52,037 nt of DNA from a virus (IMGVR_UViG_3300025151_000050:1-52037), one strand, 5' to 3'. Counted from the stretch's first letter, positions 120 through 35,680 are shown. A program made the numbers and translations. The notes: generated by a model from the letters alone, not told the origin.

Positions 120-120
120 G

Positions 121-689: not shown

Positions 690-699
690 AAACGTAGAA

Positions 700-1458: not shown

Positions 1459-1619
1459 TACAAGTAGTATTAGGTAATTTATTAGGCAAGTTTATTGCAA
1501 AGAAAGGTGGAATACATGTTCTGCTTTTTGTTGGAGATTTGATAGTAAAGACAACAAAGTCAAAAAAAGATGATGAGCTTTGGAAAAAAATAAAGCCTAT
1601 TATCAAGAAATATAAATAA
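1455..1619 (+). CDS. 54-aa amphipathic/basic protein (MIQVVLGNLL...TKSKKDDELWKKIKPIIKKYK)
   Basis: Not in the ORF track. ATGA overlap with the upstream stop, and it fills the gap to the next RBS. Confidence 0.65.
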   Translation: MIQVVLGNLLGKFIAKKGGIHVLLFVGDLIVKTTKSKKDDELWKKIKPIIKKYK

Positions 1620-1630
1620 GGAGGTATGCT

Positions 1631-1765
1631 ATGCCATACGGTAAAGGAACATACGGAAGTAAAAAGGGTAGGCCATCAAAAAAAGCTAAGGCAGCTGCTA
1701 GAAAAAAAATGTCTCCAGCTAAAAGAAAAGTGATGAAGTCTAAATCTAAAAGAAAGAAGAAGTAA
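1631..1765 (+). CDS. 44-aa Lys/Arg-rich protamine-like peptide (MPYGKGTYGSKKGRPSKKAK...KRKKK)
   Basis: Not in the ORF track. Strong AAGGAGGT RBS. 20 of 44 residues are K/R and none is acidic. Confidence 0.8.
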   Translation: MPYGKGTYGSKKGRPSKKAKAAARKKMSPAKRKVMKSKSKRKKK

Positions 1766-1932
1766 TGTCTTTATATAAAAATATTAACAAACGTAAAAAA
1801 GCAGGAACAAGTCGTTCTAAAAAGAAGTCTACAATTTCTGCTAAAAACTATAGGGAGATGAAAAAAGGATTTCCTAATAGTAAAAAGAATAAAGCTAAAC
1901 GTAAGCGTAAAGCAACCAAAAAACGGAGGTAG
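1765..1932 (+). CDS. 55-aa Lys/Arg-rich peptide (MSLYKNINKRKKAGTSRSKKK...KRKRKATKKRR)
   Basis: Not in the ORF track. TAATG coupling to the previous ORF, and it ends in the GGAGG RBS of the next gene. Confidence 0.8.
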   Translation: MSLYKNINKRKKAGTSRSKKKSTISAKNYREMKKGFPNSKKNKAKRKRKATKKRR

Positions 1933-1933
1933 T

Positions 1934-2212
1934 ATGTTAGATTTTTTAGTAAGTAATTCAACGTTAATAGGTGGTGTTGGAGGAGGTGGTGTAGTATTAT
2001 ACATCCTTAAAAAGATACCTAATGAAAGTATATGTAGCGTAATAGAAACAACATTTAAAAGCTTAGGTAGATGCATGACACTAGGACTTGGTAAATGGAA
2101 GTTTTCTAAAGGTGTTTGGAATAGTCAAATAGAGCCATGGTTTATTGACTTAATTGACAATATTTTTGGTAGTATTGTTAGAGGTTTTATTAAAGGATTA
2201 CGAAGCGACTGA
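1934..2212 (+). CDS. Small protein with N-terminal hydrophobic/Gly-rich segment, possibly lysis-related
   Basis: GGAGG RBS, hydrophobic N-terminus, located in the lysis cluster. Confidence 0.65.
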   Translation: MLDFLVSNSTLIGGVGGGGVVLYILKKIPNESICSVIETTFKSLGRCMTLGLGKWKFSKGVWNSQIEPWFIDLIDNIFGSIVRGFIKGLRSD

Positions 2213-2250
2213 GCTTAAATTAAGTTTGCTTTTAGTTAAAAGTTGAAATA

Positions 2251-9380: not shown

Positions 9381-10115
9381 ATGGCTCAACGTCATTACAT
9401 ACCAGGTGTAAAAAAACCTCAAGATAATAGCAGTAGATTAGATTACCTCGACAATCTTGAAAAAGAAAGAAGAGAAAAAGCAGAATTTCCTAAACAAGTT
9501 GTAAGTTTAGCAGGAAAAACTATTCCTTCTGCAATGAACACCATGAAAGCTATCGAAAAAATAGAAACAGCTAAACTCCTTGATAGCGAAATATTAGAAA
9601 TGACTGACCCTGCAACCAATAAACCTATCTTTGTAGATAATACATTTACAGATAATAATTATGTTACAAATGAAATAGCAAATGCTACATCTCCTTGGAC
9701 TAGTAAAGTTAAAGTAAACCCTGCATTAGATTATAAAGAATATGAAATAGCTGAAATGTTATTCGATAAAGGTGTAGACCCAAGTACAACTAGTAAATTA
9801 GTTTCTACTGAAAAGCCAATGTCTACATATGCTCAAGTGTCTAAAGGAGTAAGCGAAGGCTCTAAATTTAGTAATATGCTTGAAAGCTCTGAAAGTATGG
9901 GGTTAACTACACAATCTGAAAAAATAGGTGCAACTTTAGGAAAGGCAGGGACCGCTTTATCAATTGGGTCAGGAGTATATAGAGTGTTTGCTGAAGATGA
10001 AATGCATGAAAAAATACATGGAGGGATTCAAGCTCTTTCTCCATATTTAATATCTACAGGGCCTTTAGGAGCAAGTATAGCTGCAATTAATTTTGTATGG
10101 GACTTTTTAGATTAA
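9381..10115 (+). CDS. Putative ejection (internal virion) protein
   Basis: AAGGAG RBS, no Cys, G/A-rich hydrophobic C-terminus, first gene of the ejection cluster. Confidence 0.55.
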   Translation: MAQRHYIPGVKKPQDNSSRLDYLDNLEKERREKAEFPKQVVSLAGKTIPSAMNTMKAIEKIETAKLLDSEILEMTDPATNKPIFVDNTFTDNNYVTNEIANATSPWTSKVKVNPALDYKEYEIAEMLFDKGVDPSTTSKLVSTEKPMSTYAQVSKGVSEGSKFSNMLESSESMGLTTQSEKIGATLGKAGTALSIGSGVYRVFAEDEMHEKIHGGIQALSPYLISTGPLGASIAAINFVWDFLD

Positions 10116-10471
10116 TGCGTAGAGAATTAAATAAAATGCAAGTAGAAAATATAGAATCTTATTTAAATAAATCTGGTGATAATATGCATGAATTTATGAA
10201 TAAAAATCCTAAATCTCATGTCTATGAAGTTCCAAATATGGGCTGGATTGAGTATTACGTATGGGATAAAATATTTTGGATACATACTGCATTTTCAAAA
10301 TTATCCACTAAAGAAACAAAAGAAATATGGAAATCTATTATTAAAATGGCTAAATACGAAGGATGTGAAAAAATACAATTTACCACAAAAAGAAATCCAA
10401 AAGCTTTTGAAAGATTATATAACGTTAAGACTGTACAATATAAAATGGAGCTTGACTTAACCAAGGAGTAG
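10115..10471 (+). CDS. GNAT-fold protein of the podovirus ejection cluster (T7 gp13-like position)
   Basis: FWIHTAFS...IIKMAKYEGCEKIQFTTKRNPKAFERLY is a truncated GNAT pattern. Start moved to the TAATG-coupled ATG at 10115. Confidence 0.6.
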   Translation: MRRELNKMQVENIESYLNKSGDNMHEFMNKNPKSHVYEVPNMGWIEYYVWDKIFWIHTAFSKLSTKETKEIWKSIIKMAKYEGCEKIQFTTKRNPKAFERLYNVKTVQYKMELDLTKE

Positions 10472-10473
10472 TT

Positions 10474-11565
10474 ATGAACAAATTATTAGAAAATATTAGC
10501 AATTGGATGCAAAATGGCTATAAAGGTAATCATTTACAAAGCAATGCTGCGTACGACCCTGATACAGGTGCGTATTCAGCAATAGGTACTGACCCTGGAA
10601 GTAAAATAGGTACTATAAGAAGAGTAGGAAAAGGAGATAGTTTTAAAGGGAAAAAATCTAAATGGAGAGGAGAGCAAACAGAAGCAGTTACTAAATCAGG
10701 AAAAGAATTTACATCTCTCGCTGAATGGGAAACAGAATGGAGAAATCCTTACATTGAAGGTAAAGAAGATGAAATTAAAACAATGGGTCAAAATATTTTA
10801 AGTACTGGAGAAGGAGAAGGAGTAGAAGGCACTGGATTTAAATATGCAGGAGACGAATATGCTTTTGAAGCTGCAGCCTCAGGATTTGAAGAAGCTGAAG
10901 GTGCTAGAGACCAAGCTATAAAAGATTTAGAAATAGCAGAAGAAGAATATATTGCAGGTAAAGAAAGAGCAGAAGAAGAATATCAAGCAGATATTAATAA
11001 AATGGCTCGAGATAAAGGAAGTATATCTAGTGAAGGGTATTCAGATTTATTAGCATCTGGAGCCGCTGAAAGTCAATCAGGATATGCTATGTCAGGACCT
11101 ACAGAAGAAAGAGCTTTAATGTCTAGTGGGGAAACAAGAAACAGGATGACTGAATTATCTCAAAGTAAATTTGAAAGAAAAGTTCAAAGAGATGATGAGC
11201 TAGAAGCTATTGAAGCTGATTTTGATGCTGCAAAAGACGTAGAATCTGCTGCTCAAAAAAGATTTAAAACTGAAGAAGCAGGATATAAAAGCACTGTTGA
11301 TAGTTTAATTGCTACAACTTTACAAACTTTAGATGATACTGAAGAAGCTATTTTTTTTAAAGGAGAAGAAGATACAGGCATTGAAGATTTATATATCTCA
11401 TCATCTACAGGTAGAGCAAAAGATTTATGGCAAAACATTTCTCAGCGTAGTGCCTACAGAGATACTTTGCAAAAAGTTAGAGATTTAAGAACAGGATATG
11501 ATACATTGAGAAGTAAAGTAGAAAGTGGCGAATACTTTGAATCTGGGTCAGGAGGTAATGAGTAA
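10474..11565 (+). CDS. Putative ejection protein, acidic coiled coil
   Basis: AAGGAG RBS, helical E/A-rich composition, no Cys. Confidence 0.6.
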   Translation: MNKLLENISNWMQNGYKGNHLQSNAAYDPDTGAYSAIGTDPGSKIGTIRRVGKGDSFKGKKSKWRGEQTEAVTKSGKEFTSLAEWETEWRNPYIEGKEDEIKTMGQNILSTGEGEGVEGTGFKYAGDEYAFEAAASGFEEAEGARDQAIKDLEIAEEEYIAGKERAEEEYQADINKMARDKGSISSEGYSDLLASGAAESQSGYAMSGPTEERALMSSGETRNRMTELSQSKFERKVQRDDELEAIEADFDAAKDVESAAQKRFKTEEAGYKSTVDSLIATTLQTLDDTEEAIFFKGEEDTGIEDLYISSSTGRAKDLWQNISQRSAYRDTLQKVRDLRTGYDTLRSKVESGEYFESGSGGNE

Positions 11566-13166
11566 TGGCAGATTTTATGGATGATTTAGTTAACATAATA
11601 AATGCTGGTGCAAATGCATATGATTCTTATGCAAGCTCTAAATTAGCAAGTGCGAATGCTAGAGCTGCTTCAAGAGAGCGTAGAGAAATGGCTGTTTTTC
11701 AAGATTCATTATTACGTGAACGACAAAATGATAAAATTGTTATTGATGCTTTAGAAGATAGATATAATGAATCAGTTAAAGAAATTAAAAGGTTAGATGC
11801 AGAAGCTACTAACCTTGGATTTGATTATGAGAGTTATTTAGGAACTATACCTGAAAACGAAAGAACTCAAGATATGCTTTCTGTTTTTGAAAATGAAACT
11901 GATTATCAAAATAAAACATTATTTGCAAGCGTAAAAGAAGCTAATGATATTGATACATTAAAGAAAAATCAAAAAGCTAGTACTGCTATGAATGAATGGA
12001 AAATTAGAGAAATAGGCAATCTTATTAACCAATATGAAGCTGGTGAAGCTGATGCTAAAATGATGGATACAGAAATGGGAATTAAAAGTATTCCTGATTA
12101 TTATGATTATCAAAATAAAGTAAAAGAATTTAGTGATAAATATTTAATGTCTGAAGATGATGTCAGAAGATTTCAATCTGAATTTATGGGCATGAAAGAA
12201 GGCGATGAAGGTTATGGTATTTTTGGACCTAAGACAACTAAAGCTTATGATGAACTAAATCGTGGACCTATGATTTCTTTAGATGCAGGTCCTGATGAAA
12301 TATTAGGTAGCCTTGACGATACTAGAAGAGGATTATCTGCTAGAGGTGCAGGATTAATGAGCGGTGCTCCTACTACTAAAGAGCAATTGCAATTAGAAAC
12401 TGCATTAACTAATCTTAAAAATAAAAAATTAACTGATGATGCTAAATCTGGTTCAATTGATTTTACTCAAGCAAGAAGTGAAAATTGGTCTAGTGTAAAT
12501 TCAGATATGAGAAGTTACGCTACTAATGTTGCACAACTTCAAGGCACTGGTAGTTTAAATGAAGACTATAGAGAAAAATTTGCATTTGATGCATCTATTA
12601 AATTTGACAAAGAAGGTGGATTTAATAGTAAAGAAGATTTAAAACAATTTAGAGATAGTTTAGGTCAAAAGCTTTTGCAAGTAGCTAAATGGGGAGATGA
12701 CTCTAGCTTGTCTGATGATTTAAGAAAAGCAGTAATAGCTGGTGATTTGCTTGATTTATCTAATAAATTAATACCAGATAATCCAAATGACATTGACCCA
12801 ATGACTGGAGTTAGTAAAAAATATTCTGGTAATTTATTTGACTTTGCAGGATTTAATGATATGGGTGTAAATGAAAATAGACATTTTGTAGAAAATTTAA
12901 AAATGTGGAAAAAAGCATACGACATAGAAGGTGATATTGATAAATTTGAATTAGGGTTATTAAAAACACAGGCAGAGCAAAACAAAAGATTATCTAATTT
13001 AATATTACCCTCTTATTCTCCTTCAGAATTTGGAAAAGATGATATTGCCCAATTAGATGCATTTTTACCAAAAGACCTTTCAGTCTATGACGATAAAGGC
13101 GGAATAGATTATGAGCAATTATCTAAAGTATTAGATATGATGAAACTTTTTAATTTTGGGAAATAA
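11565..13166 (+). CDS. Putative ejection protein
   Basis: TAATG coupling with GGAGG RBS, helical, no Cys. Confidence 0.6.
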   Translation: MADFMDDLVNIINAGANAYDSYASSKLASANARAASRERREMAVFQDSLLRERQNDKIVIDALEDRYNESVKEIKRLDAEATNLGFDYESYLGTIPENERTQDMLSVFENETDYQNKTLFASVKEANDIDTLKKNQKASTAMNEWKIREIGNLINQYEAGEADAKMMDTEMGIKSIPDYYDYQNKVKEFSDKYLMSEDDVRRFQSEFMGMKEGDEGYGIFGPKTTKAYDELNRGPMISLDAGPDEILGSLDDTRRGLSARGAGLMSGAPTTKEQLQLETALTNLKNKKLTDDAKSGSIDFTQARSENWSSVNSDMRSYATNVAQLQGTGSLNEDYREKFAFDASIKFDKEGGFNSKEDLKQFRDSLGQKLLQVAKWGDDSSLSDDLRKAVIAGDLLDLSNKLIPDNPNDIDPMTGVSKKYSGNLFDFAGFNDMGVNENRHFVENLKMWKKAYDIEGDIDKFELGLLKTQAEQNKRLSNLILPSYSPSEFGKDDIAQLDAFLPKDLSVYDDKGGIDYEQLSKVLDMMKLFNFGK

Positions 13167-16100: not shown

Positions 16101-19100
16101 ACATAGATGGAGATGTAGAAGAGCGAATAAATTACAAAGAATTTGCTAAAGAACTATCTAGACTTATTAAAATAGATACTCCATCTAGTGATTTGCTTAC
16201 TAGAGACTTTATTGACAATTCTATAAAACCATTTTTTGATAAACGAATAGTTAATAGTAAAGGTGAAAAGTTATTTAACGTTAAAGAAGTAAACGACCCT
16301 CAAGTATTTAATAAGGGATGGTATGTACCTTCAGAAAAAACGCTATACATAAATACTGCCTATGCTACAAAAGATACTCCTTTTCATGAATTTGCACATC
16401 CTATATTAGAATACATGGATAAGCAAGACCCTAAAACTTTCGATAAATTATATGAAGAAATTTTAAATACTCCTGAAGGCAAAAAAGCACATAGCGTTGT
16501 AAAAGAACTATATCCTGTAGATTATCAAAATCAAACTGCTTTATTTAAACATGAAGTATTTGCTGAAGCTTTAGGTTATATGGGTAAAAAGAAGTACTTA
16601 AGTCCTGCTGATAAAACTTTATGGCAAAAAATAGTTGATTTTATTAAACAAGTATTTGGAATAAAGCCTGAGTCTTGGAGGTCTATGAAAGCTGATAAGG
16701 TTCTTACTGGCCCTAATGTTAGTATAGAAAAACTTGTAGAAGTTATATCTGACCCTACTAAAAAATATACATTAGAAGTTTTTACTGACGAAGAAAAATT
16801 AGCATCTATGCAAGATATACTGCTAACAATGCCAAATCCATCTCCTACAATGAATCCTACTATACCTCAAAGAATTTTAACTCCTGTATTTAGTGAGATA
16901 AAAGATGCTGAATCTAGTCAAAGAGAGTTTCTAGATGTTGTAGTGGGTGAAGCTTTAAATGAAGCATTAAGTAATTTACCTGATAATCTTACCGATAACG
17001 ATATATTTAATCTTAATAAGTCTATTTCTTTAGCTTTAGGTAAAAAATTAAAAACTATGCTTAAAATACCAAAGCGTTTATATAAAGGTAAAAAGTATAA
17101 AGTAGGAGATATTGATTCTCAAGTTGTAGATATATTAGACAATTCATATAAAGAATTATTCAGTCAGACATTAGTTAAGTCTGGATTGCAAAGTAAACTT
17201 TCTGGAGATGACATTAGTCCAAAATGGACAAATCCTTTGTTTACATATTCAGACGATAGAAAAACAATAACTTTAACTGCCGAAGGGTCAGCATTGCATG
17301 ATGTATTTAAAGCAGTGCAATTTAAGAATAGGGTATCAGAATTTTTAAGAAAGAAACAAATAAAGTTTTCTGTAAATGACATTAATGCAAAGTTTAGTAA
17401 ACAATCTGAATTTGGCAAAGAGAGTAAAGAAATACAAGAATTTCAAAAGTATTTAGATAAAAAAGATATTTTAAATGTTGATGGCAAAAGAATAAAATCT
17501 ATTGATTCATTTGAATTAGCAGAACATTTTGACACCTATATGGCAGAAAAGTATCCATTATTTTACGAATCGTTTCCCAAAAATTATGGAGTAGAAATAC
17601 ATAAAATATATAGAGATTATGAATTATCAGAGCAGATGAAAGAAAATAGTATAGCTAATAGAGTTGCATTTTTTGATAAAGCAACCACTCTACATAACTA
17701 CTTTTCATATCATGGAATGGGTAAAGGATATAAAGAAGGTCCAGCCTCTATTGATAATACTGCTCCTTTATTTTGGTATAGTTATGAGAAAACTCATGAT
17801 GGAGATATTGTATTATATGAATATCAAAGTGATATATTTGACAAAGATGTATCTACAGGATTAAGTTCAAATGATTTAATAAAAGATTTAAAAACCAAAG
17901 GAAGCGATTCTACAACTAGTGGATTTATATTAGAAAAAGCACTTGATGTATATTATGGAAAAAGCTCAGATGCTGTAGCTGATATGTTAAAATATGGATA
18001 TAGAATACCTCCTGTAATAAAAAGGATGATTAATTTTGAGTTTAAATTTAAAGATTTAATTAAATATGTCGATGAAACTGATGAGAATAAATCATTACTT
18101 ATAAAAAAGATAGTTGATAATAATTTAATGCCTATGTTTCATTTAGATGACTTAAGGAATAGTAATAAGAAAGAATTATTTAAACTATTAGGTAATCATG
18201 CATTTGATGTATTTAAAACTACTGGAGATTTTAATAAAGCTTTAAATAGCTATAAAGACATTTTATCATTCCAAGTTCCTGACGTTACTTCGTTTGATGA
18301 AAATAGGCAATTAAATAATTGGGAAAATATATTGCATGAGTTTAAAGTGTGGTCTTCATCTATGTCTGGATACAATGCTTATGGAGTTAATAAAATAGAT
18401 AATGAAATGTCAGTAGCTTTAATGCAAGATATTATTAATAATAAAGCTAACAAGGAAAGATATTATGAAATTTTAACTGCTATAAATAATGGAGAGCAAG
18501 TTGAAGGTGGTAATGAAGCAGCATTAATTGCTTTAAACGAAAACAAATATAGAGAAATATCTTCTCGATATCAAAGAATAAAAACAGAAGGACTTAATAA
18601 AGAAAAATCATCTAATGCATTAACTGAATTTATAAAAAGTTCAATTATAAATAATCCTTCTTTTATGGAAGCAACATTAATTAGATACAAGCGTAGTTCT
18701 GAAATCCCTAATTTAATGTATAAAGCATTAGCCATGTCAAAAAGATTTACAAAACAAGCTGAAGCTGAGTTTCAAAAAGGTTTAAGATTTGCTAATAATG
18801 CTAAATTTTTAACAAATGAAGTATTTTCAAGCAAAGAAGCATTACGTGCTTTTGCAGAAGCTGAATTTCAAGAATCTATTGTTAAATTTTTAAACATATA
18901 TATATCAAATAGAAGTTCTTCTGAAATAAAAAGCAAGGCTCTTGAATTAGCTAATGAAAAAAATCAAGTAAATGCAGAAAAAATAGCTAAAGAATTTAAG
19001 GTAATTAAAGATAGACACGATAAAATGATTAATCCTGTTGTGCAGTCAAGATATTTTGATTGGATTATTCGTCATTCAATTATAAATGCATCTCAATTAA

Positions 19101-22100
19101 TAGAAGAAGGAAAATCTATTTATTTAAATACAGGTGCAAGTATTCACAAACAAGAGCATTGGGATGAGCAAAATGACCCATTTCATATCTATAAGTCTCC
19201 AAATGAAAATAAATGGCATATTACTAAACAAATTTTAATGGACGATAGAGATGCCCTATTAAGACAGAAATTGTCTAAAATGTTTGCTAAAGATGGTTTA
19301 GAAGATAAATATAAAATGAATTTAGGTATGTTTTTAGATACCTTTACTACTTCTGGTCCTGGTTTATTAGGATATAAATATGAATATGGTGAAATTAATC
19401 CTTACGATAATAAAGATTATAGAGAGGTTCAAGATTGGCTATCTAATAATATAAAAAATGCAGTTTCTGTATATAAGCCAACTGAAAAAACTACCGTTGC
19501 TGGTTTTGATTATAAATATGAAGCAACTAAAAAGAGATTAGAAAATTGGAATAAAGTAGGACCATGGTATACAGCATTAACAAAAATTAAAAATTTAGGA
19601 CTTGAATATGTTACTCCAGAATGGTCATCAGTTCCTTTGCTTAAAGTAACTAAAATACCTTCTGACTTAACTCCTACATTTTATCAAAAAACTGTATTAG
19701 AGATAAGTGATGCAGAAGGAAATCCACAATCTTTATCAGATATTAAAGAACTAGCTAATCATTTATTGGAAAAAAGAAATCTTACAGCTAGAAAGAAAGA
19801 CAGAATATTTAAGAATGCATGGAAACAATTAAATGAAATCAAAGAAGGAATTGTTGCAGACCCACAAGAATTTAGAGTCGCAATGATAGATGGACTGCCT
19901 ATTGATATAAGAGATGATTTTGTTAAATGGTTTAAAGTTAATTTTAACAAAGATAAAATGCAGAAGATTAGAAGTAAAGAAGCGTTTGGGGAATCTCAAG
20001 AATATTTTCTAGATATAGAAGATGTTGCAAGTAATGTTATGACATATTTAAATGAAATGTCTGAAGGCTTAGATGACTTATCTAATAAAAAACAAACTAA
20101 TGAAAAAGAAATAGGTATTAATGAACTTACCTATTTTAGAGAGTTAGGTATAAATATAAGTCAAAATGAATTAAAATCAGTTAGAAAAGAAGCACATAAA
20201 ATAGATAGATTTGAAGACTGGTTAAAAGAAGTAGGTCCTAAATACTTTGCATTAGCTCCTTCTAAAATGGTTAATTGGAAGAAAAATGGATTGCAAAAAT
20301 ATTATTTAAGGATTAGAAGTAGTATTAGAGTAAATACATCTGAAGGTGTAAATAATGAACGAGACAATTTTAATGTAGAAATAGTTGATGAATGGATAGA
20401 CGGACAGTGGGTAGTTAAAGATTTTAAGATAGGATTAAAAGGCCCTGAAGACAAAAGCTCAGGCAAAAAGAATGCTACTTTTGAAAAAATAATGCCATTT
20501 GAATTTGTAGAAAAAGGTTTGTTTGGTTTTATATCTCCTAAAGACATGAGAGTTTCTAGAGCAAAAAAAGATGAAGACGGAGAATATGTTTTAGACAATA
20601 CAGGTAAAGCAGAAAGAGAACTTAAGGAAAGATATGGAAGTTTAACAGAACGTGAACTTTTACTGTTATCTAAAAGATTAGGAGAAAAAGACCTTGCCAT
20701 AGCATTTATGAGAGGTGAAGCAGGAAAGCTCGGTATTGTAAGGATTACTTCTGACCATAAAAATAAAGCTAAAAATGCTGATGATTACTTTGATTTAAAA
20801 GGAGTAAGCCCTGAAATGAAAGAAGAGCTTATGGGCAAAGGCTTAAAGTTTAAAGATAATAACGCTAGAATGCAATACATAGCTGCAGAGATTGCTGTCG
20901 TTGAAGCTATGGAAAAAGTATTCCCTGATTATTTAAATAGAAGTATAGCTAATGTATACAAAAGAATAAAGCTACCTTTTACACCAGCTACATTTTCTCA
21001 TGAAATGGAAGATATAAAATTAAGACGTATTAGTCCTGAAGAATTAAAAGATTTAAGATTTGTATATAACAATAAAACTAATACAGATGGTTTAAAGAAT
21101 GTTAAAGGAGTTGGCGTTAAATATATAGCAGACGGTGGTACTATTAATGGTAGAAATATATTTGAAAAGTTTTATAAAGGGTTTGGTTTAAAGAGAGGTA
21201 CAGCTAAAGGTAAGACTGTTATATATCATAATGATGGCTCAGGAAATGTTATTGCAGTAAAACATCAGCATTCTATGATGGAAAAACTTATGGATATCTA
21301 TGTAGGTGATAAGAGAATTGCTTATACAGATAAAAATGGTAATTTATTTTTAGACAATGGAAGTCCTATAGATATGCTAGCTACTGAAGATGAAATTAAA
21401 ATTTTAACGGGAGCTGGTAATTTATCTAATGAGATAATAGAAATACCAGGGAATGCAATAGGGTTTATAAAGTTTGATGAGCATACATCTACAAATGGTA
21501 AAACTGCTATTCAAGCATGGAATCATATTTATGATAGAAATTTAGTAAGTGCATTTAATCAGTTCATGGTGCCTCAAGCTGAAAAAGAAATTAGAAAAAT
21601 GATTTTACTTGCTGTAGATACTGTTAATTCTAAGTCTATAGATAAACAATTAGAATTATTAAAGATATTAGAAAATCAAGATTCTGAAGGATATATGCCA
21701 TCTGCATTAGAAATGGCTAAATTAGGAGCAGGTAATCATCCTTCTATGGCTCCTGTTTATAATAAACTTGTACAAAGACATATCATTGAACCTGGGGTGC
21801 AGTTATCTAAAGTTCCAGGCTCACGATTAGATTTTGCTCCTAACTTTAGAGGAGATTTAGATAGAGGTGAAGTAGCATTATCGATTCAGAATGCTAAAGC
21901 TATTAAAGAAAAATATGCTGAAATGAATGACATGAGTCTTTCTGATGTAGATAAATTATCAATGAAAGTTTTAAATGAATGGTTAGCAGATAATCCTATA
22001 TATATATTTGCATCTAGAAGTCCTATACCACACGTTGGTGGTGCGATGATGGCTAGAGTTAAAAGACTGCATGGAAGAAAGGGTCTTATTGAAATTAATA

Positions 22101-23500
22101 CCGATGATGTATTTGCTAGATTTGAAGGTGATTTTGATGGAGATGAGCTACACATAGAAGTTTTACCTCAAGGTATGGGACAGCCTATGTTAGAATTTTA
22201 TGACAACATAGCTAAAAATTTAAAAGGTATTAGCTTAGATAAGTTTGTTAATCCTAATAATAATGCTAATTTTAGTATAGGCAATAGACGAGATAGATTT
22301 AAAATTATGGAAGCGTTAGGTCATGGAAATAATGCCATGGGAGAAATATCTAATGTTCAAGGCGTTTACGGTCAAATGGTTCAAATGATAGAGTCAATAG
22401 AGTTGCCATATTCAGGTAAAAAAATTATGCTAAAGCAGCCTACTGATATAATAAAATGGAAGCCTTCTTATTATAAAGATGGAAAATGGTCTGGGAATAT
22501 TAGTGACTTTTTAAGAATAATGTTACAAGCAGCTTTTGATAATAATGAATTTATGCTACTAGGCGAATGGAATTATAATCAGGATGGTCTGTATAGATTT
22601 TTATTTAAAGATGAAAAAGGCAATCCAATTACTGAATTAGATTTTGATTTATTAAGACCATTATTAAAATTAATAAAATCTGCTCAAGACATAAGAAATG
22701 CTAAGACTTATGTTGATGGCCAATTTGATTTGCTTACTACTATGAGAAAAAGTTCAGAGCTAAATAATTTTATTGAACGACTTAATACTGGTATTGTAGG
22801 TGATTTAAAAATTAAAAAATATGATGATGCAGTTATGAGCCCTGTACAAAGCCTTGCAATACTGCCATATCGTTTATATCAGGAATATCTATCTAAATAC
22901 GAAAGAATAGGTGAAAATGGTACTCCATTCCACTTAAACCCTTATCTTCATTATAACGCCCATTTAGACGCTATGGAGCGTATTGATAAAGAAGAGTATG
23001 ATATGTTAGCACAGGCATTAACAGTAGATGGAGTAAATATAGAAGGAAGTGGTGCTTATATAAGACAGCAAGTATCTGAAGGCAATAAATACGCTATGAA
23101 AATGGGTAAGGAATTTTATCGCATATTAGGTGGAGTATCTAAAGCTGGTCCTCAAACTACAGATAGAAATGAAGATTTTATAGCATTTAAAGAACAATAT
23201 AATAAAGAATTTAAAGAATTGTCTAATACAGCACAAGTAGCTGCTACTATTAAGTTCTTAAAAGGAGTAACTATATGGAGAGAAAACATTGCAAAGAAAA
23301 AAACAAAGGCTCCTCATTATTTACCATCTGCTAGTAGGTCTAAAGCAGAATTTCAATTGCTTGATGCAAACGTATTAAGTAGATTCTTTAGATATTATAA
23401 TGAAATAACTAATGCTCCTGAGAATAGAGATTTAAGAGCATCTAAAAGAAAATTAAAATACACTCCTACAATGGATTTATTAAAAAGGTTTGGTTGTTAA
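13166..23500 (+). CDS. Giant ejection polyprotein with zincin protease and double-psi beta-barrel virion RNA polymerase
   Basis: HEFAH at 16385-16399 with downstream EVFAE. RNAP motifs KR, ADGG (21131), SRSP (22013), GDFDGD (22127-22144), MGEISN and QAAFDN. Confidence 0.85.
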   Translation: MAEEKYGIGFNPIEEEDEAVRLLRSLDYIQNQTKPLNDDEKLISGDKEKYVKLPEEEPVVEQIEPQEESEENQQLYNYANQFIEAQNIPIGDSGKPIVNPSDIGLFLKQTNPYDREIQDYDADLLGDKWLRENPNQKQFEIYETSLSDELAYTFREFADNIKLSVPAFLQMAAQQSNEYSYLNTVKSLVGEEPQDIFDDETNIKLPRDKKIDIINMLQDAKKAQLEENRKDVEYMAWMRYAADTPMSEWGEGVWARSAGRSVSNLLLQYLIPTGAAIITRNPNVGLVSSLGLGYLLEGSNQMSSSIDYLMQGKEISLDEYNKKLSLFRNTWSEEYKEQFGEDISEKKLKLDSDTWTNNNFDMSQLSKGIIKEYGHSKEEAYDIAWVAANTYAVASTSIEFFPGMRIMKRAAGVDRKMIGPKTYRASLFSTILNKTSDATKRIAQKTGLATRLSTPAIAANVGKTSILEGATEWMQYNAEVAIETIGPAAYKSESFSEVYDYNTALESFVGGMMGGGIMSLSTDIVNKSGAMQRVANFSKKMYPGRNTIVVKKDDDGRYKLVFNDKFQGVTIGDPEVRNQLLQRNFKKELLRDEQNNEISYSNFREASEVASQLTDEMNKFDNQIFLHKMQSYIGGEVKIEQTSEGKFQVNAYNKEGKFINTIETADTKVAAKKTLKIASQNIVSINKLNEQISEKEMSENRFLQQLKQEESTTGVNVDVKTSEVKNRGLINNRDLNTDINILKAFNPDSEVKTEEENDVIDKVNDDYNLHEDSNIIKEIIEERGGNVILHSGQTPVEFLKEYEDTFGEDSPENVEAIRNILIEDELLPPSEMPQDNESTPAEKVEKEIELGPEGDAVLDRTDIPITTVDRDDNTGRNINIDKGEKLPIQKTPKPKASKKQKELSSLTDEQLKSRLATLISTEKKAGLPLASQKKELLDELKARGIDEKDLDLKQKISPRILEKLEANREKYIEIVLPKDIDGDVEERINYKEFAKELSRLIKIDTPSSDLLTRDFIDNSIKPFFDKRIVNSKGEKLFNVKEVNDPQVFNKGWYVPSEKTLYINTAYATKDTPFHEFAHPILEYMDKQDPKTFDKLYEEILNTPEGKKAHSVVKELYPVDYQNQTALFKHEVFAEALGYMGKKKYLSPADKTLWQKIVDFIKQVFGIKPESWRSMKADKVLTGPNVSIEKLVEVISDPTKKYTLEVFTDEEKLASMQDILLTMPNPSPTMNPTIPQRILTPVFSEIKDAESSQREFLDVVVGEALNEALSNLPDNLTDNDIFNLNKSISLALGKKLKTMLKIPKRLYKGKKYKVGDIDSQVVDILDNSYKELFSQTLVKSGLQSKLSGDDISPKWTNPLFTYSDDRKTITLTAEGSALHDVFKAVQFKNRVSEFLRKKQIKFSVNDINAKFSKQSEFGKESKEIQEFQKYLDKKDILNVDGKRIKSIDSFELAEHFDTYMAEKYPLFYESFPKNYGVEIHKIYRDYELSEQMKENSIANRVAFFDKATTLHNYFSYHGMGKGYKEGPASIDNTAPLFWYSYEKTHDGDIVLYEYQSDIFDKDVSTGLSSNDLIKDLKTKGSDSTTSGFILEKALDVYYGKSSDAVADMLKYGYRIPPVIKRMINFEFKFKDLIKYVDETDENKSLLIKKIVDNNLMPMFHLDDLRNSNKKELFKLLGNHAFDVFKTTGDFNKALNSYKDILSFQVPDVTSFDENRQLNNWENILHEFKVWSSSMSGYNAYGVNKIDNEMSVALMQDIINNKANKERYYEILTAINNGEQVEGGNEAALIALNENKYREISSRYQRIKTEGLNKEKSSNALTEFIKSSIINNPSFMEATLIRYKRSSEIPNLMYKALAMSKRFTKQAEAEFQKGLRFANNAKFLTNEVFSSKEALRAFAEAEFQESIVKFLNIYISNRSSSEIKSKALELANEKNQVNAEKIAKEFKVIKDRHDKMINPVVQSRYFDWIIRHSIINASQLIEEGKSIYLNTGASIHKQEHWDEQNDPFHIYKSPNENKWHITKQILMDDRDALLRQKLSKMFAKDGLEDKYKMNLGMFLDTFTTSGPGLLGYKYEYGEINPYDNKDYREVQDWLSNNIKNAVSVYKPTEKTTVAGFDYKYEATKKRLENWNKVGPWYTALTKIKNLGLEYVTPEWSSVPLLKVTKIPSDLTPTFYQKTVLEISDAEGNPQSLSDIKELANHLLEKRNLTARKKDRIFKNAWKQLNEIKEGIVADPQEFRVAMIDGLPIDIRDDFVKWFKVNFNKDKMQKIRSKEAFGESQEYFLDIEDVASNVMTYLNEMSEGLDDLSNKKQTNEKEIGINELTYFRELGINISQNELKSVRKEAHKIDRFEDWLKEVGPKYFALAPSKMVNWKKNGLQKYYLRIRSSIRVNTSEGVNNERDNFNVEIVDEWIDGQWVVKDFKIGLKGPEDKSSGKKNATFEKIMPFEFVEKGLFGFISPKDMRVSRAKKDEDGEYVLDNTGKAERELKERYGSLTERELLLLSKRLGEKDLAIAFMRGEAGKLGIVRITSDHKNKAKNADDYFDLKGVSPEMKEELMGKGLKFKDNNARMQYIAAEIAVVEAMEKVFPDYLNRSIANVYKRIKLPFTPATFSHEMEDIKLRRISPEELKDLRFVYNNKTNTDGLKNVKGVGVKYIADGGTINGRNIFEKFYKGFGLKRGTAKGKTVIYHNDGSGNVIAVKHQHSMMEKLMDIYVGDKRIAYTDKNGNLFLDNGSPIDMLATEDEIKILTGAGNLSNEIIEIPGNAIGFIKFDEHTSTNGKTAIQAWNHIYDRNLVSAFNQFMVPQAEKEIRKMILLAVDTVNSKSIDKQLELLKILENQDSEGYMPSALEMAKLGAGNHPSMAPVYNKLVQRHIIEPGVQLSKVPGSRLDFAPNFRGDLDRGEVALSIQNAKAIKEKYAEMNDMSLSDVDKLSMKVLNEWLADNPIYIFASRSPIPHVGGAMMARVKRLHGRKGLIEINTDDVFARFEGDFDGDELHIEVLPQGMGQPMLEFYDNIAKNLKGISLDKFVNPNNNANFSIGNRRDRFKIMEALGHGNNAMGEISNVQGVYGQMVQMIESIELPYSGKKIMLKQPTDIIKWKPSYYKDGKWSGNISDFLRIMLQAAFDNNEFMLLGEWNYNQDGLYRFLFKDEKGNPITELDFDLLRPLLKLIKSAQDIRNAKTYVDGQFDLLTTMRKSSELNNFIERLNTGIVGDLKIKKYDDAVMSPVQSLAILPYRLYQEYLSKYERIGENGTPFHLNPYLHYNAHLDAMERIDKEEYDMLAQALTVDGVNIEGSGAYIRQQVSEGNKYAMKMGKEFYRILGGVSKAGPQTTDRNEDFIAFKEQYNKEFKELSNTAQVAATIKFLKGVTIWRENIAKKKTKAPHYLPSASRSKAEFQLLDANVLSRFFRYYNEITNAPENRDLRASKRKLKYTPTMDLLKRFGC

Positions 23501-26500
23501 TGGCTAATAAATGCGATACAGGTAAAGCAGGATTTGATAATTTAAATAACGATAATGAAGCTCGGAACAAAATATCAGCTGCTGATGCTGATAAAAAAGT
23601 TAAAGCTACAGGGCGTTTATTAGAACGTGAAAATATTGTATCAGAATTAGAAAAAAACAACAAACCTAATTCTATTATTAAAGAGAAAGATTTAGACAAC
23701 GCTATTAAAGCTGTATTTGGTAAAGATGAAAGAAAAGTTTTATTACACAAAATTGACTCTTTATTTCATACAAATGAAATGATGCGACCTGTACTTGAAG
23801 ATATAATAAGAGAACATGTTGTTGTACATCAAAAAACAGGTGGTATAAAAGATTTTAATAAGTTAGGTCTTGAAGCATTAACGCCTAGTAGTTTAAAAGT
23901 TGTTTATAGAGAAATGAATAATTTTTTAGCTGCTACTAATGTAGGTGATAAAAAAGGAAATTATGCTGTAGGATTAATTAAGCATTTTAAAGTAAAACTA
24001 TATACTCCAAAAACTTCAGGTAAGACTGTATATGCAGATAAAGATGGTTCATTTTTTAAATTTGCTGATGAAATAACAAGACTGCATGAGAGAATATCGT
24101 ATCGTATTAATGAGTTTATGTTTAAACCAAAGACATGGAAATCTAAAAGACAATATGGTATGAATGACATATTAACTAGCTTAAGAAATTTAGCAGATGA
24201 TATTCCTTTAAATCAGCGTAAAGAGATTGAAAGACCTGATGAAAAAATAGTTACTATATGGTCGTGGATGATGGGTGGTAGAGTTTTTATAGGACCTAAA
24301 ACAATTAAAGTAGATGATAAAGATGTACCTAATCCTAATGTAGGTAAATTAATGATTTATCAAGAAAGAGCTTCTACTGGTAAGAAATATAAAGAGACTG
24401 ATGACCTTATATTTGCATGGCAAGACCCTGTTCTTTTATCTGAATATAAAAACGGAGAGTTTGCAATACCTTTTAGCTCTACAATGTTTAATAATTTATT
24501 AAAATTAGTTGAAAAAGGTAGAGTTGTAGACAATGAAATGCTTGATTATATGAATGAAAGGCATCCTAAGTCTGTAAAAGCAATAGAAGTAGCAATGAAA
24601 AAACTATTTAAAGGATTAACTGGAGTTGAAATTACTAATATATTGTGGAAACCTGAAAGCAAGGAAGCTCTTGCTGCTTTAAATAAGCTTTCTGACAATC
24701 AAAAAGTTTTATATAAAAAACTATTAGATGCATTTCAAGGGTATGCTTTATTAGAACCTTCTATTTACAATGGTCAGGTAGCTCAAAAAAAAGAAAATCA
24801 CTTTCCTGTGCAATATCAAAAAGAAATTATGCCTTATTTAATAGATAATTATATTTCTAGAAGAGAAAGTGAACTTTTTGACAAAAAAGGTGAGCTTGAA
24901 ATATCTACAGGCAAGGAACGAAAAGTTATTAAAAAAGAAATATCTGATTTAAAATCTAATATATCTAGAGCTCAATTTATACGTGATAGAATAGATGGTT
25001 ATCCGTTAGATACTAGCCAAAACATTATACTTCCTATAGCTAAGGATAATAAATTTGTTAAAAGAATTACAAATGCATTCCCTCATGAAGCTATGAGAAC
25101 AGATGGTGGTGTTTATTATACATATTCAAAACATATTATGTCTGGTATACAACGTAACTTTTTAACAGCACAGCTTATAGAATCTCTAGCAACTGCAGGT
25201 AATGAAAAAATACAAGATGCATTAATTAATTACTACAAAGTTCCATTTAATAAGCCTGATGTTAAAACTAATATTTTAGGTACATATACTTCTGTAGAAA
25301 ATATATCTAGACGATTAGGTAGTATTAACATAAATATTACTCCTGAAATGTTAAGCAGAAGAATAGGAACACTTAATTCGTGGGTTACAGCTAATTATTT
25401 ATCAGGACTGGGAACAACTGTACAAAATTTTACAGCTATAAATCAAAACATTATTGACCATAGCTGGGGGTCATTAAGAGATGCACAAGACTCATGGTCT
25501 AAATACAAAAAAGAATGGACTGAACTTATAAATGAATCAGGTATAGTAGAGTTCCAAGACTTTTTTAGTAAATCGATGATTAATGACCTTGCTAATCAAG
25601 AGTTAGAGGATAAAACTTCTGAAACTTTATTGGCATCTATGTTACAATATCACGCTGAAAAGAAAAAAATAGGTGAACCTAAAGCTAGAGAAAACTTTGA
25701 AAGCAACATAGCTAGAGCTTTAAAAGAATCAGCTTTATTTGACCAAAATATTGTTATTCTAGATGAATCAGAAATTAAACAACGTTCTAAAGAAAGAAAG
25801 TCTGAACGTAATAGAAGAATAATAAACAAAATGGTTCAATTTGCTATTAATAAAGAATTTGAATTTAATAGGCATATAAAAGGATGGAAAGTAGTTCCTT
25901 ATACTGCATTAGGAGCTTACCTTAAAACATGGACTGCAATTGCATCTAATATGGGTGTTTTAGGAAGCATGGGCTCTACTGAAGGTTATATAAGAAGTAT
26001 GAGTTTTATTATAGGAGTGCAAACAGCACAAAAGAATGGATATATTAGAGATGATATTCAGCCATGGAAAAATAAGGATGAATTAGGAGCTATTATTGAA
26101 ATAGGTAGAACATTTTCTAGGTTTACTAATTTTGGATTATCAACTACTGATGTAGGAGAAGGTTCTTATGGTAGAATAGGCAATTTAAATATGAAGTTTA
26201 AATACTGGTCTCAACAAAAGTTTGGTAGGGATGTGCGTATTATAAAAAACGCAATTACTTCAATGCAAGATATAGATAAGATAAGTAAAGGTAAAAGTGC
26301 TAATCCATTTTTTAATCCAAAAGAAGTTTTAAAGATATTGAAGCTTATGTTATCACCTAAATATATGGGGAAAGGTTCTGATGCATTAAGAAAAGTTAAT
26401 CCTGAAGTTGCAGCATTAAGAAACTTTTTATTTATACAAGGTATTATGACAATATTATTTGATTTTTTTATATTTGGACCATTATTATTACCTGGATATC

Positions 26501-26835
26501 TAGGAAGACAATTAGCTATAGGTCCTACTAAATATTTAAGAGGAATGGGAAGTGATTTATTATCATTAAGTATGATAGTACCAATGCTTGCATTAATGGC
26601 GTATATGGGAGATGATGAGGAAGAAGATGTAGAAAGAACTCTTACTCAATATTTAAGAAGAACTTATATTGGATATTTGCCTATGATGGCTTGGGATTAC
26701 ATAGTATTTTTATTTTACTTACTAAATGATAATACCAGTGGAGTAGCTAAACAAGCTGGCAACATTACAAGAGCATTGCCAGGTGGTAAATATGCGGGGC
26801 CTGTAGTTAGAGAAGCAATAGAAGCAGCTGAATAG
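23500..26835 (+). CDS. Large ejection protein with C-terminal membrane segments (T7 gp16-like role)
   Basis: TAATG-coupled ATG at 23500. Helical, with several hydrophobic C-terminal segments. Last gene of the late block. Confidence 0.65.
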   Translation: MANKCDTGKAGFDNLNNDNEARNKISAADADKKVKATGRLLERENIVSELEKNNKPNSIIKEKDLDNAIKAVFGKDERKVLLHKIDSLFHTNEMMRPVLEDIIREHVVVHQKTGGIKDFNKLGLEALTPSSLKVVYREMNNFLAATNVGDKKGNYAVGLIKHFKVKLYTPKTSGKTVYADKDGSFFKFADEITRLHERISYRINEFMFKPKTWKSKRQYGMNDILTSLRNLADDIPLNQRKEIERPDEKIVTIWSWMMGGRVFIGPKTIKVDDKDVPNPNVGKLMIYQERASTGKKYKETDDLIFAWQDPVLLSEYKNGEFAIPFSSTMFNNLLKLVEKGRVVDNEMLDYMNERHPKSVKAIEVAMKKLFKGLTGVEITNILWKPESKEALAALNKLSDNQKVLYKKLLDAFQGYALLEPSIYNGQVAQKKENHFPVQYQKEIMPYLIDNYISRRESELFDKKGELEISTGKERKVIKKEISDLKSNISRAQFIRDRIDGYPLDTSQNIILPIAKDNKFVKRITNAFPHEAMRTDGGVYYTYSKHIMSGIQRNFLTAQLIESLATAGNEKIQDALINYYKVPFNKPDVKTNILGTYTSVENISRRLGSININITPEMLSRRIGTLNSWVTANYLSGLGTTVQNFTAINQNIIDHSWGSLRDAQDSWSKYKKEWTELINESGIVEFQDFFSKSMINDLANQELEDKTSETLLASMLQYHAEKKKIGEPKARENFESNIARALKESALFDQNIVILDESEIKQRSKERKSERNRRIINKMVQFAINKEFEFNRHIKGWKVVPYTALGAYLKTWTAIASNMGVLGSMGSTEGYIRSMSFIIGVQTAQKNGYIRDDIQPWKNKDELGAIIEIGRTFSRFTNFGLSTTDVGEGSYGRIGNLNMKFKYWSQQKFGRDVRIIKNAITSMQDIDKISKGKSANPFFNPKEVLKILKLMLSPKYMGKGSDALRKVNPEVAALRNFLFIQGIMTILFDFFIFGPLLLPGYLGRQLAIGPTKYLRGMGSDLLSLSMIVPMLALMAYMGDDEEEDVERTLTQYLRRTYIGYLPMMAWDYIVFLFYLLNDNTSGVAKQAGNITRALPGGKYAGPVVREAIEAAE

Positions 26836-33492: not shown

Positions 33493-34353
33493 TTAGAATA
33501 TATATCTTATTGTTTGCCATGGTATGTTGTGATAATGTAGATTCTCAAACTTTTTAATGTAATCTTTCTTAAATCTATAGTAATAACGTATATTATCACC
33601 TCCATATTCAGATGTTTTATCTTCCTGTAAGCTTGGATTCCACAAAAATTCTTCACCAGATACATCATTATCTACATTATATTGATGCATTTCTTTATTA
33701 TGAGTTAAAAATATGCATTCTGCTTTGACTTTATCTTTAATACTATCATCTACAATAGCATTTACATGAGTAAATAACTCTTTATAATCTTCTACAAAGT
33801 CTTTATACATAATAATAGGTGAGTAATTTAGATGCACATCGTATCCAGCTTCATAAAAATCATTAACAGCTTTAATTCTGTCAAGTATTTTACTTGTACC
33901 AGGCTCTAATACATCAGACATCACTTGTGGCATTAAACTAAAGCGTATTCTAACCTTACGATTAGCGTTATATTTTAATAAATGTTTATTTACATACTTA
34001 GTAGCTGCTGTGCCCATAGCTTTTTCATTACTTTTAAAATAATCAAATAGCTTTTCCCATTCGTGGTACTTTGCATGAGCTACATAGTCCTCGTTACAGC
34101 TAAAGTCATAAGTATAATATGTTTCGTGTGTTTGATTAGGCTCTTTAGGCCAATCAAGTAGCCATAAATGTCTATCAATAGCATCTAATATAGCATTTGT
34201 ATTCTTAGCAATTGTCAAACCATGTTTATTATGCCTACGCATATAACAATAACTACATTTATATATACAGCCATAACCAAAGCTGGGAGTTATATAGTCG
34301 CTACTACGACCTGAAGGTCGAATAATCATTGACTTTCTATCTATATATTTCAT
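33493..34353 (-). CDS. splB: Spore photoproduct lyase family radical SAM enzyme
   Basis: GCIYKCSYCY (CxxxCxxC with the YCY tyrosines), DFSCNED (fourth Cys), RIRFSL and EPGTS...RI.A. The ATG at 34353 has an AGGAG RBS. Confidence 0.85.
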   Translation of the reverse strand: MKYIDRKSMIIRPSGRSSDYITPSFGYGCIYKCSYCYMRRHNKHGLTIAKNTNAILDAIDRHLWLLDWPKEPNQTHETYYTYDFSCNEDYVAHAKYHEWEKLFDYFKSNEKAMGTAATKYVNKHLLKYNANRKVRIRFSLMPQVMSDVLEPGTSKILDRIKAVNDFYEAGYDVHLNYSPIIMYKDFVEDYKELFTHVNAIVDDSIKDKVKAECIFLTHNKEMHQYNVDNDVSGEEFLWNPSLQEDKTSEYGGDNIRYYYRFKKDYIKKFENLHYHNIPWQTIRYIF

Positions 34354-34432
34354 TCTTGCTCCTGTATAAGGGCCTGCAACCTTGGTTATCAACTATTCGT
34401 CACAGGATTTACTGCAGACCCTATTATATTAT

Positions 34433-34684
34433 TTAATCTTTTAATCCTAATACTGGTAAAACATCTTGCTCTTTACCTGTTCCATACCATAATGCTCCAC
34501 CATCATTACCTTCATCATCTGCTTGTAATATTAATCGTGTGCCATTATCAAGAACTATACATACAGGCCTAGAATGCCAGTCATAATCTCTAGCTTCTTC
34601 AACACCCATATATTTTACATCAACTATTTTACGTTTAAGTAATACATCACGTGCTTTTTCATTCCAATATTCTGGTAAATCCAT
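34433..34684 (-). CDS. Hypothetical phage protein (DDEGNDGG motif)
   Basis: AAGGAG RBS, coupled to the upstream stop. Confidence 0.75.
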   Translation of the reverse strand: MDLPEYWNEKARDVLLKRKIVDVKYMGVEEARDYDWHSRPVCIVLDNGTRLILQADDEGNDGGALWYGTGKEQDVLPVLGLKD

Positions 34685-35244
34685 TATTTAGTCTCCTTAA
34701 TTTCTTTGTATTCATTTAGTTTTTCTCTTATTTCTCTTGCAGATTTACGTCCCATATTTTTATATTTTAAAAGTCTACTTTCAGGTATATACATAAGCTC
34801 TTCAAGATATTTAAATCCAGCATTTAAAAGACAATGATGTGTTCTAACACTAAATTCAGCATCTTGTATTGGAGTAATTAATTCTGCACCTTTATATTGA
34901 GAAGCAAACTTTTTATCAGTATATACATAATTAGATTTTACTTTTTCAATACATCTTAAAGCACCTTCTCTTTTTACTTTAAATACTACATGAAGTCTTC
35001 TTTTAACTTCATCAGGATTAACTTTAGGATAGTTTTCATTGTTTAAAATATAATTAGGTACATCACGATAATGATGCCATTGTTTACGTTGGTATATTTT
35101 ACACCATTGTCTAGCTCTTTCTTCTGTTACATCAAAATAAAACTTTTCACCTACTTTCATCTCAGACATAATTTGCATTGCCAGACTTTTAGGATATACT
35201 AGTTTTAATTTATTATTTTTTGTATATACTTTATATAATTCCAT
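34684..35244 (-). CDS. Protein with C-terminal RNA polymerase alpha-CTD domain
   Basis: PIQDAEFSVRTHHCLLNAG...LLKYKNMGRKSAREIREKL aligns by eye to RpoA CTD. The ATG at 35244 has a CAGGAG RBS. Confidence 0.85.
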   Translation of the reverse strand: MELYKVYTKNNKLKLVYPKSLAMQIMSEMKVGEKFYFDVTEERARQWCKIYQRKQWHHYRDVPNYILNNENYPKVNPDEVKRRLHVVFKVKREGALRCIEKVKSNYVYTDKKFASQYKGAELITPIQDAEFSVRTHHCLLNAGFKYLEELMYIPESRLLKYKNMGRKSAREIREKLNEYKEIKETK

Positions 35245-35289
35245 TGTTTTCTCCTGTGAGTTGATATTTATTATTAGTGATATACTTAT

Positions 35290-35680
35290 TGAAGCATTAT
35301 TAAGCTTTTTTATCATTCTATGGTAGTGCCTTAAAGACTGTGCTTGTAGTCCATATATTTTGTTTCCATCTCCATCAACAGTTTGCATGGGAGAACTTTA
35401 AGGTTCCTGGAATAAACTTAGGCTAACTTCTCAGGACTGCCATAGCTATAGTTAGCTACTTATATATGCTTTAGAGCTGTACCACACAATAACGGGCCAT
35501 TAAGGATATATTGTCCACCTTACTCTATAATTTAAAAGGGGGCTTGACCCTCGTTAGTGCCTAACAAACATTGTAAGTAAAATGTAAACACTCGCCTGTC
35601 AATATCCCCCTAAATGATTGGGTGCGACAGTATTTAAACTGCTAAAGATTTGCTGTCACACAACTCTTCGCACCCACAAC
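35290..35680 (-). ncRNA. Candidate multi-hairpin structured RNA region
   Basis: Successive stems at 35619-35676 (TGGGTGCGA) and 35537-35611 (long irregular hairpin), plus TAGAGT/GCTCTA and GCTAACT/AGTTAGC. Confidence 0.45.

Follow-up and report, generated by a model that had tools for sequence, protein, structure and literature searches.

The closest described precedent for a covalent junction between ejection proteins is the pre-ejectosome of cyanophage A4 (Anabaena phage A-4L), in which electron cryo-microscopy resolved a disulfide between Cys1715 of gp27 and Cys5 of gp26 (PDB 9K2V, 9K3A; PMC12002296). The C-terminal helix of gp27 is docked there in a cleft of gp26, the complex is a ring with five copies of each protein, and the authors, in the available portion of their text, present the bond as stabilising the folded pre-ejectosome and do not describe it as a cleavable linker (PMC12002296). 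The sequence considered here is the 52,037-nucleotide virus contig IMGVR_UViG_3300025151_000050:1-52037 (hereafter the window, meaning this whole stretch), in which a 3444-residue protein that ends in a predicted RNA polymerase (the giant) is followed directly by a 1111-residue protein (the partner). Each holds a single cysteine, the last residue of the giant and the fifth of the partner, and these we read as the two ends of a probable disulfide. The question that the pair addresses is how podophages store, order and release the very large proteins that they inject.

Two further groups offer points of comparison. Among the Schitoviridae (N4-like phages), a giant RNA polymerase protein of about 3,400-3,500 residues (the virion RNA polymerase, or vRNAP, gp50; gp71 in DEV) is packaged in the virion and injected. 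The polymerase of N4 is a T7-like single-subunit enzyme. Cysteine is suppressed across the Schitoviridae ejection operon (PMC11445570), and so there is support in print for what the original prediction about the window, a reading made from the sequence by itself, had stated of injected proteins such as N4 vRNAP, namely that they lack cysteine. For the Crassvirales, disulfides between virion proteins have been reported in the tail of crAss001; the available portion of that paper mentions them only there, and the word cysteine does not occur in it (PMC10172136). The phi14:2 preprint, in the part available, mentions neither disulfide nor cysteine, and assigns a zincin-like domain to gp65, which is encoded after the polymerase. 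As far as their available text goes, the structural papers on crAss001 and N4 leave the arrangement of the polymerase protein unresolved.

A conserved cysteine pair at one gene junction

The window is a 52-kb phage sequence of 32% G+C in which terminase, portal and capsid genes were identified, and the listing of its open reading frames (ORFs) places the structural genes in a long block on the plus strand. Cysteines were counted over the 37 listed ORFs (coordinates in Table 1). From a manual scan, the original prediction had stated that three upstream proteins of 244, 363 and 533 residues contain no cysteine, that the giant contains one as its last residue (KRFGC) and that the partner contains one at residue 5 (MANKC); the computed census returned exactly these counts. 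One correction applies: a 124-residue ORF inside the block, which the prediction did not mention, carries one cysteine. Relatives have an ORF of 120-150 residues at this position with 0-4 cysteines, and such counts suggest that this small protein probably lies outside the constraint acting on its neighbours.

The remaining ORFs of the window contain 81 cysteines per 9,167 residues (0.88%); the five cysteine-poor block proteins, 5,695 residues in all, contain 2 against 50.3 expected (Poisson P(<=2) = 1.8e-19). If each protein is granted one cysteine, a placement within the last 4 residues of the giant and the first 8 of the partner would arise by chance with a probability of about 8e-6. None of the six block proteins matched Pfam, PHROGs or PDB sequences, and the 244-residue protein is a putative ejection or internal protein by its position and its lack of cysteine.

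A family represented by 33 or more IMG/VR loci shares this arrangement. Nine giants of 2286-3604 residues, that of the window included, were recovered by a word-indexed search that used the polymerase region. Eight of them have exactly one cysteine, among the last three residues; P0010, the ninth, lacks one and ends about 250 aligned columns early. In the IMG/VR scan, 31 of the 33 loci include the end of the giant ORF, and each of these 31 giants contains exactly one cysteine, 1-3 residues before the stop; the two giant ORFs that run off their locus contain none. The window's protein and those of the 31 loci together comprise 90,402 residues and 32 cysteines, every one of them in the last four residues.

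The downstream proteins are equally consistent. An ORF of 1070-1400 residues follows the giant in 30 loci, and in all 30 it has an N-terminal cysteine at about residue 4-7 from the likely start. This is the sole cysteine in 28 of them; one of the other two adds Cys33 (L013), and in the other (L027) the second cysteine precedes the ATG of the mechanically called ORF. In a further locus (L008), which stops just past the junction, the first codons of the partner read MATNC. A HMMER search with the partner profile (E <= 0.001) returned 194 cluster representatives from clusters at 50% identity. Among the 65 listed representatives of at least 1000 residues, 61 carry a cysteine at one of the first 12 positions, the sole one in 58 of these; the rest comprise one with a cysteine at residue 13 and three that are N-terminally truncated, beginning far inside the profile. 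A metagenome scan added 35 loci, some on contigs that duplicate IMG/VR contigs, and the junction lies within 22 of them, every one with both cysteines. Of the 13 loci without the junction, 12 lack the partner's N-terminus and have no cysteine, and one (L054) has the N-terminal cysteine of the partner and no upstream ORF. The original prediction had named co-conservation of the terminal pair in homologues as a check, and the pair is found there throughout.

Such constancy is set within divergent sequence. The 32 polymerase domains share 19-39% identity with the window's protein and fall into 20 clusters at 50% identity; the terminal cysteine of the giant is one of only 20 columns invariant in all 32, alongside the catalytic GDxDxD. 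In the partner alignment Cys5 is among the few columns conserved to the degree given in Table 1, and the three sequences without it lack the whole N-terminal region. The segments around both terminal cysteines are otherwise variable, and the partners are otherwise free of cysteine over about 77,000 residues. The depletion reaches upstream in the relatives as well: the ORF immediately before the giant has no cysteine in any of the 30 cases showing one (29 loci and the window), and the second ORF upstream has none in 25 of 28 (27 loci and the window). No form without either cysteine was found among complete sequences. No sign of split giants emerged, in that blastp (E <= 1e-5) matched none of the upstream ORFs to a giant, and no fused form of giant and partner was found among the longer proteins searched, which is weak evidence; no match to the partner profile exceeds 1386 residues among the 150 listed.

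The two proteins

The last 1050 residues of the giant were modelled with AlphaFold2 on 32 aligned sequences, with a predicted local distance difference test score (pLDDT) of 87.7 and a predicted template modelling score of 0.84. The best Foldseek match of this model is the phi14:2 virion RNA polymerase (6vr4_A; E 4.2e-13, probability 1.00, TMq 0.43), followed by chains of QDE-1 (E 1e-9 to 1e-8); no T7-like single-subunit chain occurs among the matches listed. The 'RNA polymerase end' named in the original prediction is borne out, and by its modelled fold it is a two-barrel polymerase of the crAss type, not of the N4 type; in this the giant differs from N4 gp50. The model closes with a short helix (model residues 1041-1049), after which comes the cysteine. 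Earlier in the giant lies an HExxH motif of zincin-like character, in a region without a Pfam match, for which the motif alone would suggest a peptidase role. Packaging in the virion and injection of the giant are likewise what its place among the structural and ejection genes, together with its purge of cysteine, would imply.

The partner is predicted to be nearly all helical (pLDDT 84.2), with a long helix at residues 6-33 that begins directly after Cys5. Two hydrophobic segments near its C-terminus are candidate membrane helices, which would insert into a membrane if their hydrophobicity is a guide. Foldseek against the PDB gave nothing at E <= 0.001 for the partner; in the weak rows below this, three of the top seven are internal-core proteins of T7 or PhiM1, at probabilities of at most 0.2. 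VIA-align in its wide mode gave helical-hairpin matches only, with Z below 8. These comparisons used the 1111-residue protein as a whole, a form of search in which domain matches can be missed. A prediction of the complex between the last 250 residues of the giant and the first 250 of the partner scored 0.00, which speaks neither for nor against binding.

Comparison with described ejection modules

In the A-4L record, gp27 (1717 residues) has Cys1715 as its only cysteine, gp26 (1114 residues) has only Cys5, and gp29 has none. Its relatives Pf-WMP3, Pf-WMP4, CHP58 and TR020, with 23-27% identity to gp26, keep the pair in all four cases: the sole cysteine of the first protein lies 1-2 residues from its end, and the second protein has Cys5 or Cys8, with two further cysteines in that of TR020. 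Judged by these counts, the A-4L group, the sole family in which the bond has been seen, carries the signature of the window family. The likeness extends to the setting. In both phages the two proteins are encoded by consecutive genes of an internal or ejection module, with the sole cysteines at the C-terminal end of the first and at residue 5 of the second; the second proteins are near-equal in size; the first ends in a C-terminal helix; and the neighbouring ejection proteins are poor in cysteine. The predicted geometry is also alike, in that the models show the giant ending in a helix and then the cysteine, and the partner starting with MANKC and then a long helix. Unlike the first protein of the window, which is twice as long and ends in a two-barrel RNA polymerase, gp27 is not described as a polymerase in the available text (PMC12002296).

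Elsewhere in the A-4L module, gp28, which has lytic transglycosylase and metallopeptidase domains (PMC12002296), holds a CxxC near its C-terminus (Cys1036/1039). The same is seen in ORF 8-3139 of CHP58 (Cys1022/1025), and this is the sole other cysteine cluster of the module; such a pair may be a metal site.

Among the Crassvirales, gp67 of phi14:2 has its sole cysteine as the last residue, gp66 (the polymerase of crystal structure 6VR4) has Cys3 and Cys2179 of 2180 residues, and the one cysteine of gp65 is Cys3. In crAss001, that of gp47 is Cys2339 of 2341 residues and that of gp49 is Cys5, and gp50 has three, Cys5, Cys1334 and Cys2404 of 2412; the gene for gp47, with its C-terminal cysteine, lies on the other strand from those for gp50 and gp49 with their N-terminal ones. 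The terminal-cysteine pattern extends over two junctions in both phi14:2 (locus L037, 98-16301) and crAss001 (locus L034, 6120-24724). In DAC15, cr55_1 and cr118_1, a cysteine 0-3 residues from the C-terminal end faces Cys3-5 of the next protein. Fused giants occur in this order: that of cr55_1 (4551 residues) has no cysteine in its first 4,025 residues, and those of cr118_1 and cr10_1 have scattered internal ones. The window phage shares with the Crassvirales the polymerase fold, a DxDGD-type metal-binding motif in a double-psi beta-barrel and the terminal-cysteine census. It differs in having a single junction between two proteins, the first of which carries the polymerase at its C-terminal end, where the Crassvirales have three proteins and two junctions; and its HExxH motif precedes the polymerase, whereas the zincin-like domain of phi14:2 follows it. 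No sequence similarity to phi14:2 gp65, gp66 or gp67 was detected by hhalign (probability 0.15% for gp66), and no PDB sequence matched. Given this, and the same result for A-4L gp26 (below), the likeness among the groups is one of design, except for the polymerase fold.

With the Schitoviridae the window phage has in common a giant polymerase protein of similar size, the suppression of cysteine and a distantly similar terminase. The N4-like ejection proteins differ in having essentially no cysteine, and hence no terminal pair.

A probable disulfide and its alternatives

By analogy with A4, the two cysteines probably form an inter-protein disulfide in the mature particle, from the C-terminus of the giant to the N-terminus of the partner. 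The tail-to-head bond of the original prediction is to this extent plausible, having a precedent in gp27-gp26 (PMC12002296); it has been observed in A4 and not in the window phage, for which it is inferred. In an oxidised particle, Cys3444 of the polymerase-bearing giant would bond to Cys5 of the next-encoded protein, and the two, linked tail to head, would make a single 4,555-residue chain without branches inside the internal (pre-ejectosome) complex. All other cysteines have been purged from the giant, the partner and the proteins just upstream, as in other tail-injected phage proteins, so that the terminal cross-link is the sole one possible. A link from C-terminus to N-terminus would keep the chain unbranched and of a single polarity, with stubs of at most three and about seven residues, and would suit exit through a narrow tail; the absence of other cysteines would prevent loops or wrong links on the way out. 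The bond would hold the pair at one to one through assembly and ejection, until thiol reductants of the host cytoplasm opened it and freed the polymerase. That the reduction would release the polymerase from a membrane-anchored partner is suggested by the two hydrophobic C-terminal segments of the latter.

Were this so, a single covalent link at facing termini would supply a simple physical rule for the order and stoichiometry of the ejected proteins and a built-in release switch, and would account for the shortage of cysteine long noted among them. These parts of the proposal differ in strength. Whether the bond serves as a tether for ordered ejection and reductive release, rather than as a staple of a folded core, is a matter on which we lean, tentatively, away from the tether. 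One may suppose, with a good deal of doubt, that tailed phages with giant injected proteins make general use of cysteines confined to the termini. On this view at least three groups that show no detectable similarity in sequence (the ocean-metagenome family of the window, the Crassvirales and the A-4L group) would chain cysteine-free ejection proteins by disulfides and thread the chain through the tail in one pass from N- to C-terminus. Thiol reductants would cut it once its ends had reached the host cytoplasm, and the redox state would thereby time the release of the polymerase, a task that would otherwise need a protease acting on a peptide bond. The literature searched contains no statement of a general terminal-cysteine rule that goes beyond the single A4 bond, and the wider reach of the design seems to be unpublished. 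The window family is itself an uncultured, new one, with the terminal-cysteine design of the A4 pair and the polymerase module of the crassviruses. The rule could serve as a sequence signature for chains of ejection proteins in uncultured phages without family matches.

It is worth setting out the points that weigh against a disulfide of this kind. Firstly, particles assemble in a reducing cytoplasm, and no thiol oxidase or thioredoxin-like enzyme was found by Pfam in 16 of the 37 listed ORFs (10 of them on the minus strand). Secondly, the partner profile shows no sequence similarity to A-4L gp26 (hhalign probability 0.5%) and no A4 chain was listed by Foldseek or VIA-align for the 1111-residue partner model; as no relation in sequence or fold to gp26 or gp27 was detected, the A4 precedent is an analogy. 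Thirdly, neither large protein was matched in 50,697 GenBank phage records, and no cultured member of the family was found. Fourthly, cr118_1, cr10_1 and DAC15 carry 3-6 internal cysteines, so that the purge is not absolute in some gut crassviruses and freedom from cysteine is not strictly required for ejection. Finally, because both cysteines are always present there is no signal of co-loss or covariation, and the pattern of conservation fits two independent essential cysteines equally well.

This last point opens the most serious alternative, itself unlikely, in which each cysteine acts alone, forming homodimers (giant with giant, partner with partner) or bonding to another protein of the virion, for instance the portal or a tail protein, and the adjacency of the genes is incidental. 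Invariance cannot separate pairing from independent roles, and candidate third proteins exist, since other virion proteins of the window hold cysteines, among them the 754-residue portal-like protein with one. What such a reading leaves to coincidence is that the number of C-terminal cysteines always equals the number of N-terminal cysteines in the next protein in four groups with no detectable relation in sequence (the window family, the A-4L group, phi14:2 and crAss001), and that the partner observed in A4 is indeed the next protein (PMC12002296).

Decidedly unlikely is a second alternative, in which a bound metal ion (zinc, iron or copper) bridges the thiols and is perhaps shared around a ring of copies. 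Two thiols that face each other on flexible chain ends could hold a metal, and a ring with five copies of each protein, as in A4, could bring several pairs close together (PMC12002296). Neither cysteine, however, has a conserved histidine, aspartate or further cysteine beside it, the terminal segments being variable, and the link in the solved A4 structure is modelled as a disulfide (PMC12002296).

Little credence can be given to other thiol chemistry, by which the cysteines would undergo acylation or another modification, or act as nucleophiles in terminal processing, with no link between the proteins. Terminal cysteines are used elsewhere for lipidation and thioester chemistry, but there is no signal peptide, lipobox or set of conserved residues around either one here, no enzyme for such a reaction among the ORFs scanned, and no fixed distance to the ends, with 0-3 residues after the C-terminal cysteine and the N-terminal one at position 4-8.

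The junction itself bears on the weakest alternative. In the window it reads AAA AGG TTT GGT TGT TAA, and ATG GCT AAT AAA TGC begins on the last A of the stop, which gives the TAATG coupling of the two genes that the original prediction described. Relatives have TAATG, TAAATG, short gaps or a GTG start that overlaps the cysteine codon, in all three relative frames; in about a dozen of them (L015, L017-L025, L028, L030) the partner's GTG start is made of the last two bases of the giant's cysteine codon and the next base (TGTG). The giant's codon is TGT in 29 cases and TGC in 3 across the loci, and both codons also occur at the partner site. Since both are used and all three frames occur, selection is on the residue and not on the DNA of the junction. 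That TGT or TGC is kept as a nucleic-acid signal, for translational coupling or as an RNA element, is on present data very unlikely to the point of being negligible: the two codons lie within roughly 8-31 nucleotides of each other and the TGTG overlap recurs, but the layouts and frames differ among loci, the synonymous codons alternate, the cysteine-free remainder of both proteins lies beyond the reach of any local signal, and crAss001 gp47 has its C-terminal cysteine though its gene is not adjacent to that of its presumed partner.

Phage relationships and other features

The tblastn matches of the terminase TerL (40173-41726) are to N4-like and Roseobacter podophages, at about 25% identity; of the 609 records matched, 15 are listed, and the ten organism names that occur most often include no crassvirus. 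The capsid protein (45361-46833) matched 19 records, with no crassvirus among the 15 of the 19 that are listed. The phage pairs a crAss-type two-barrel virion polymerase, in a giant of N4 size, with a terminase whose matches are to N4-like and Roseobacter podophages. Many of the related contigs bear TARA labels.

Table 1. Features of the ejection block and of the junction between giant and partner (window coordinates)
Feature	Position	Strand	Remarks
244-residue ORF, no cysteine	9381..10115	+	unmatched in Pfam and PHROGs; putative internal or ejection protein
124-residue ORF, one cysteine (residue 90)	10097..10471	+	within otherwise cysteine-free block
363-residue ORF, no cysteine	10474..11565	+	second ORF upstream of giant
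533-residue ORF, no cysteine	11565..13166	+	immediately upstream of giant
Giant, 3444 residues, sole cysteine the last residue	13166..23500	+	ends KRFGC
HEFAH (HExxH, zincin-like) motif, residues 1074-1078	16385..16399	+	FHEFxHP in consensus of 9 homologues
Predicted polymerase domain, C-terminal 1050 residues, two-barrel	20348..23497	+	AlphaFold2 model and Foldseek
DFDGD metal-binding motif, residues 2989-2993	22130..22144	+	G594, D595, D597 and D599 of alignment invariant in 32 sequences
Cys3444 codon TGT	23495..23497	+	last residue of giant
TAATG stop/start overlap	23498..23502	+	giant stop and partner start
Partner, 1111 residues, sole cysteine residue 5	23500..26835	+	starts MANKC
Cys5 codon TGC	23512..23514	+	conservation of 90% or more across 67 aligned partners
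Two hydrophobic segments, residues 975-1001 and 1016-1038	26422..26613	+	Kyte-Doolittle 19-residue means 1.6-1.9; helical in model

No terminal repeats of the window were found. Within it, a 52-nucleotide segment occurs twice in an 824-residue ORF (6105-6156 and 7098-7149, plus strand; 73% identity, 993 nucleotides apart), which suggests an internal domain duplication in a tail-region protein. Two genes on the minus strand complete the picture. In a 234-residue protein (34684-35388), the C-terminal 60 residues give a Pfam match to the alpha-subunit C-terminal domain of bacterial RNA polymerase (PF03118, E 3.4e-17), and this protein may act as a decoy or adaptor, either for transcription factors of the host or for UP-element binding. 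A 299-residue protein (33493-34392) with Cys42, Cys46 and Cys49 matches the spore photoproduct lyase/radical SAM family (PF20903, E 8.9e-22), an unusual match for a small podophage.

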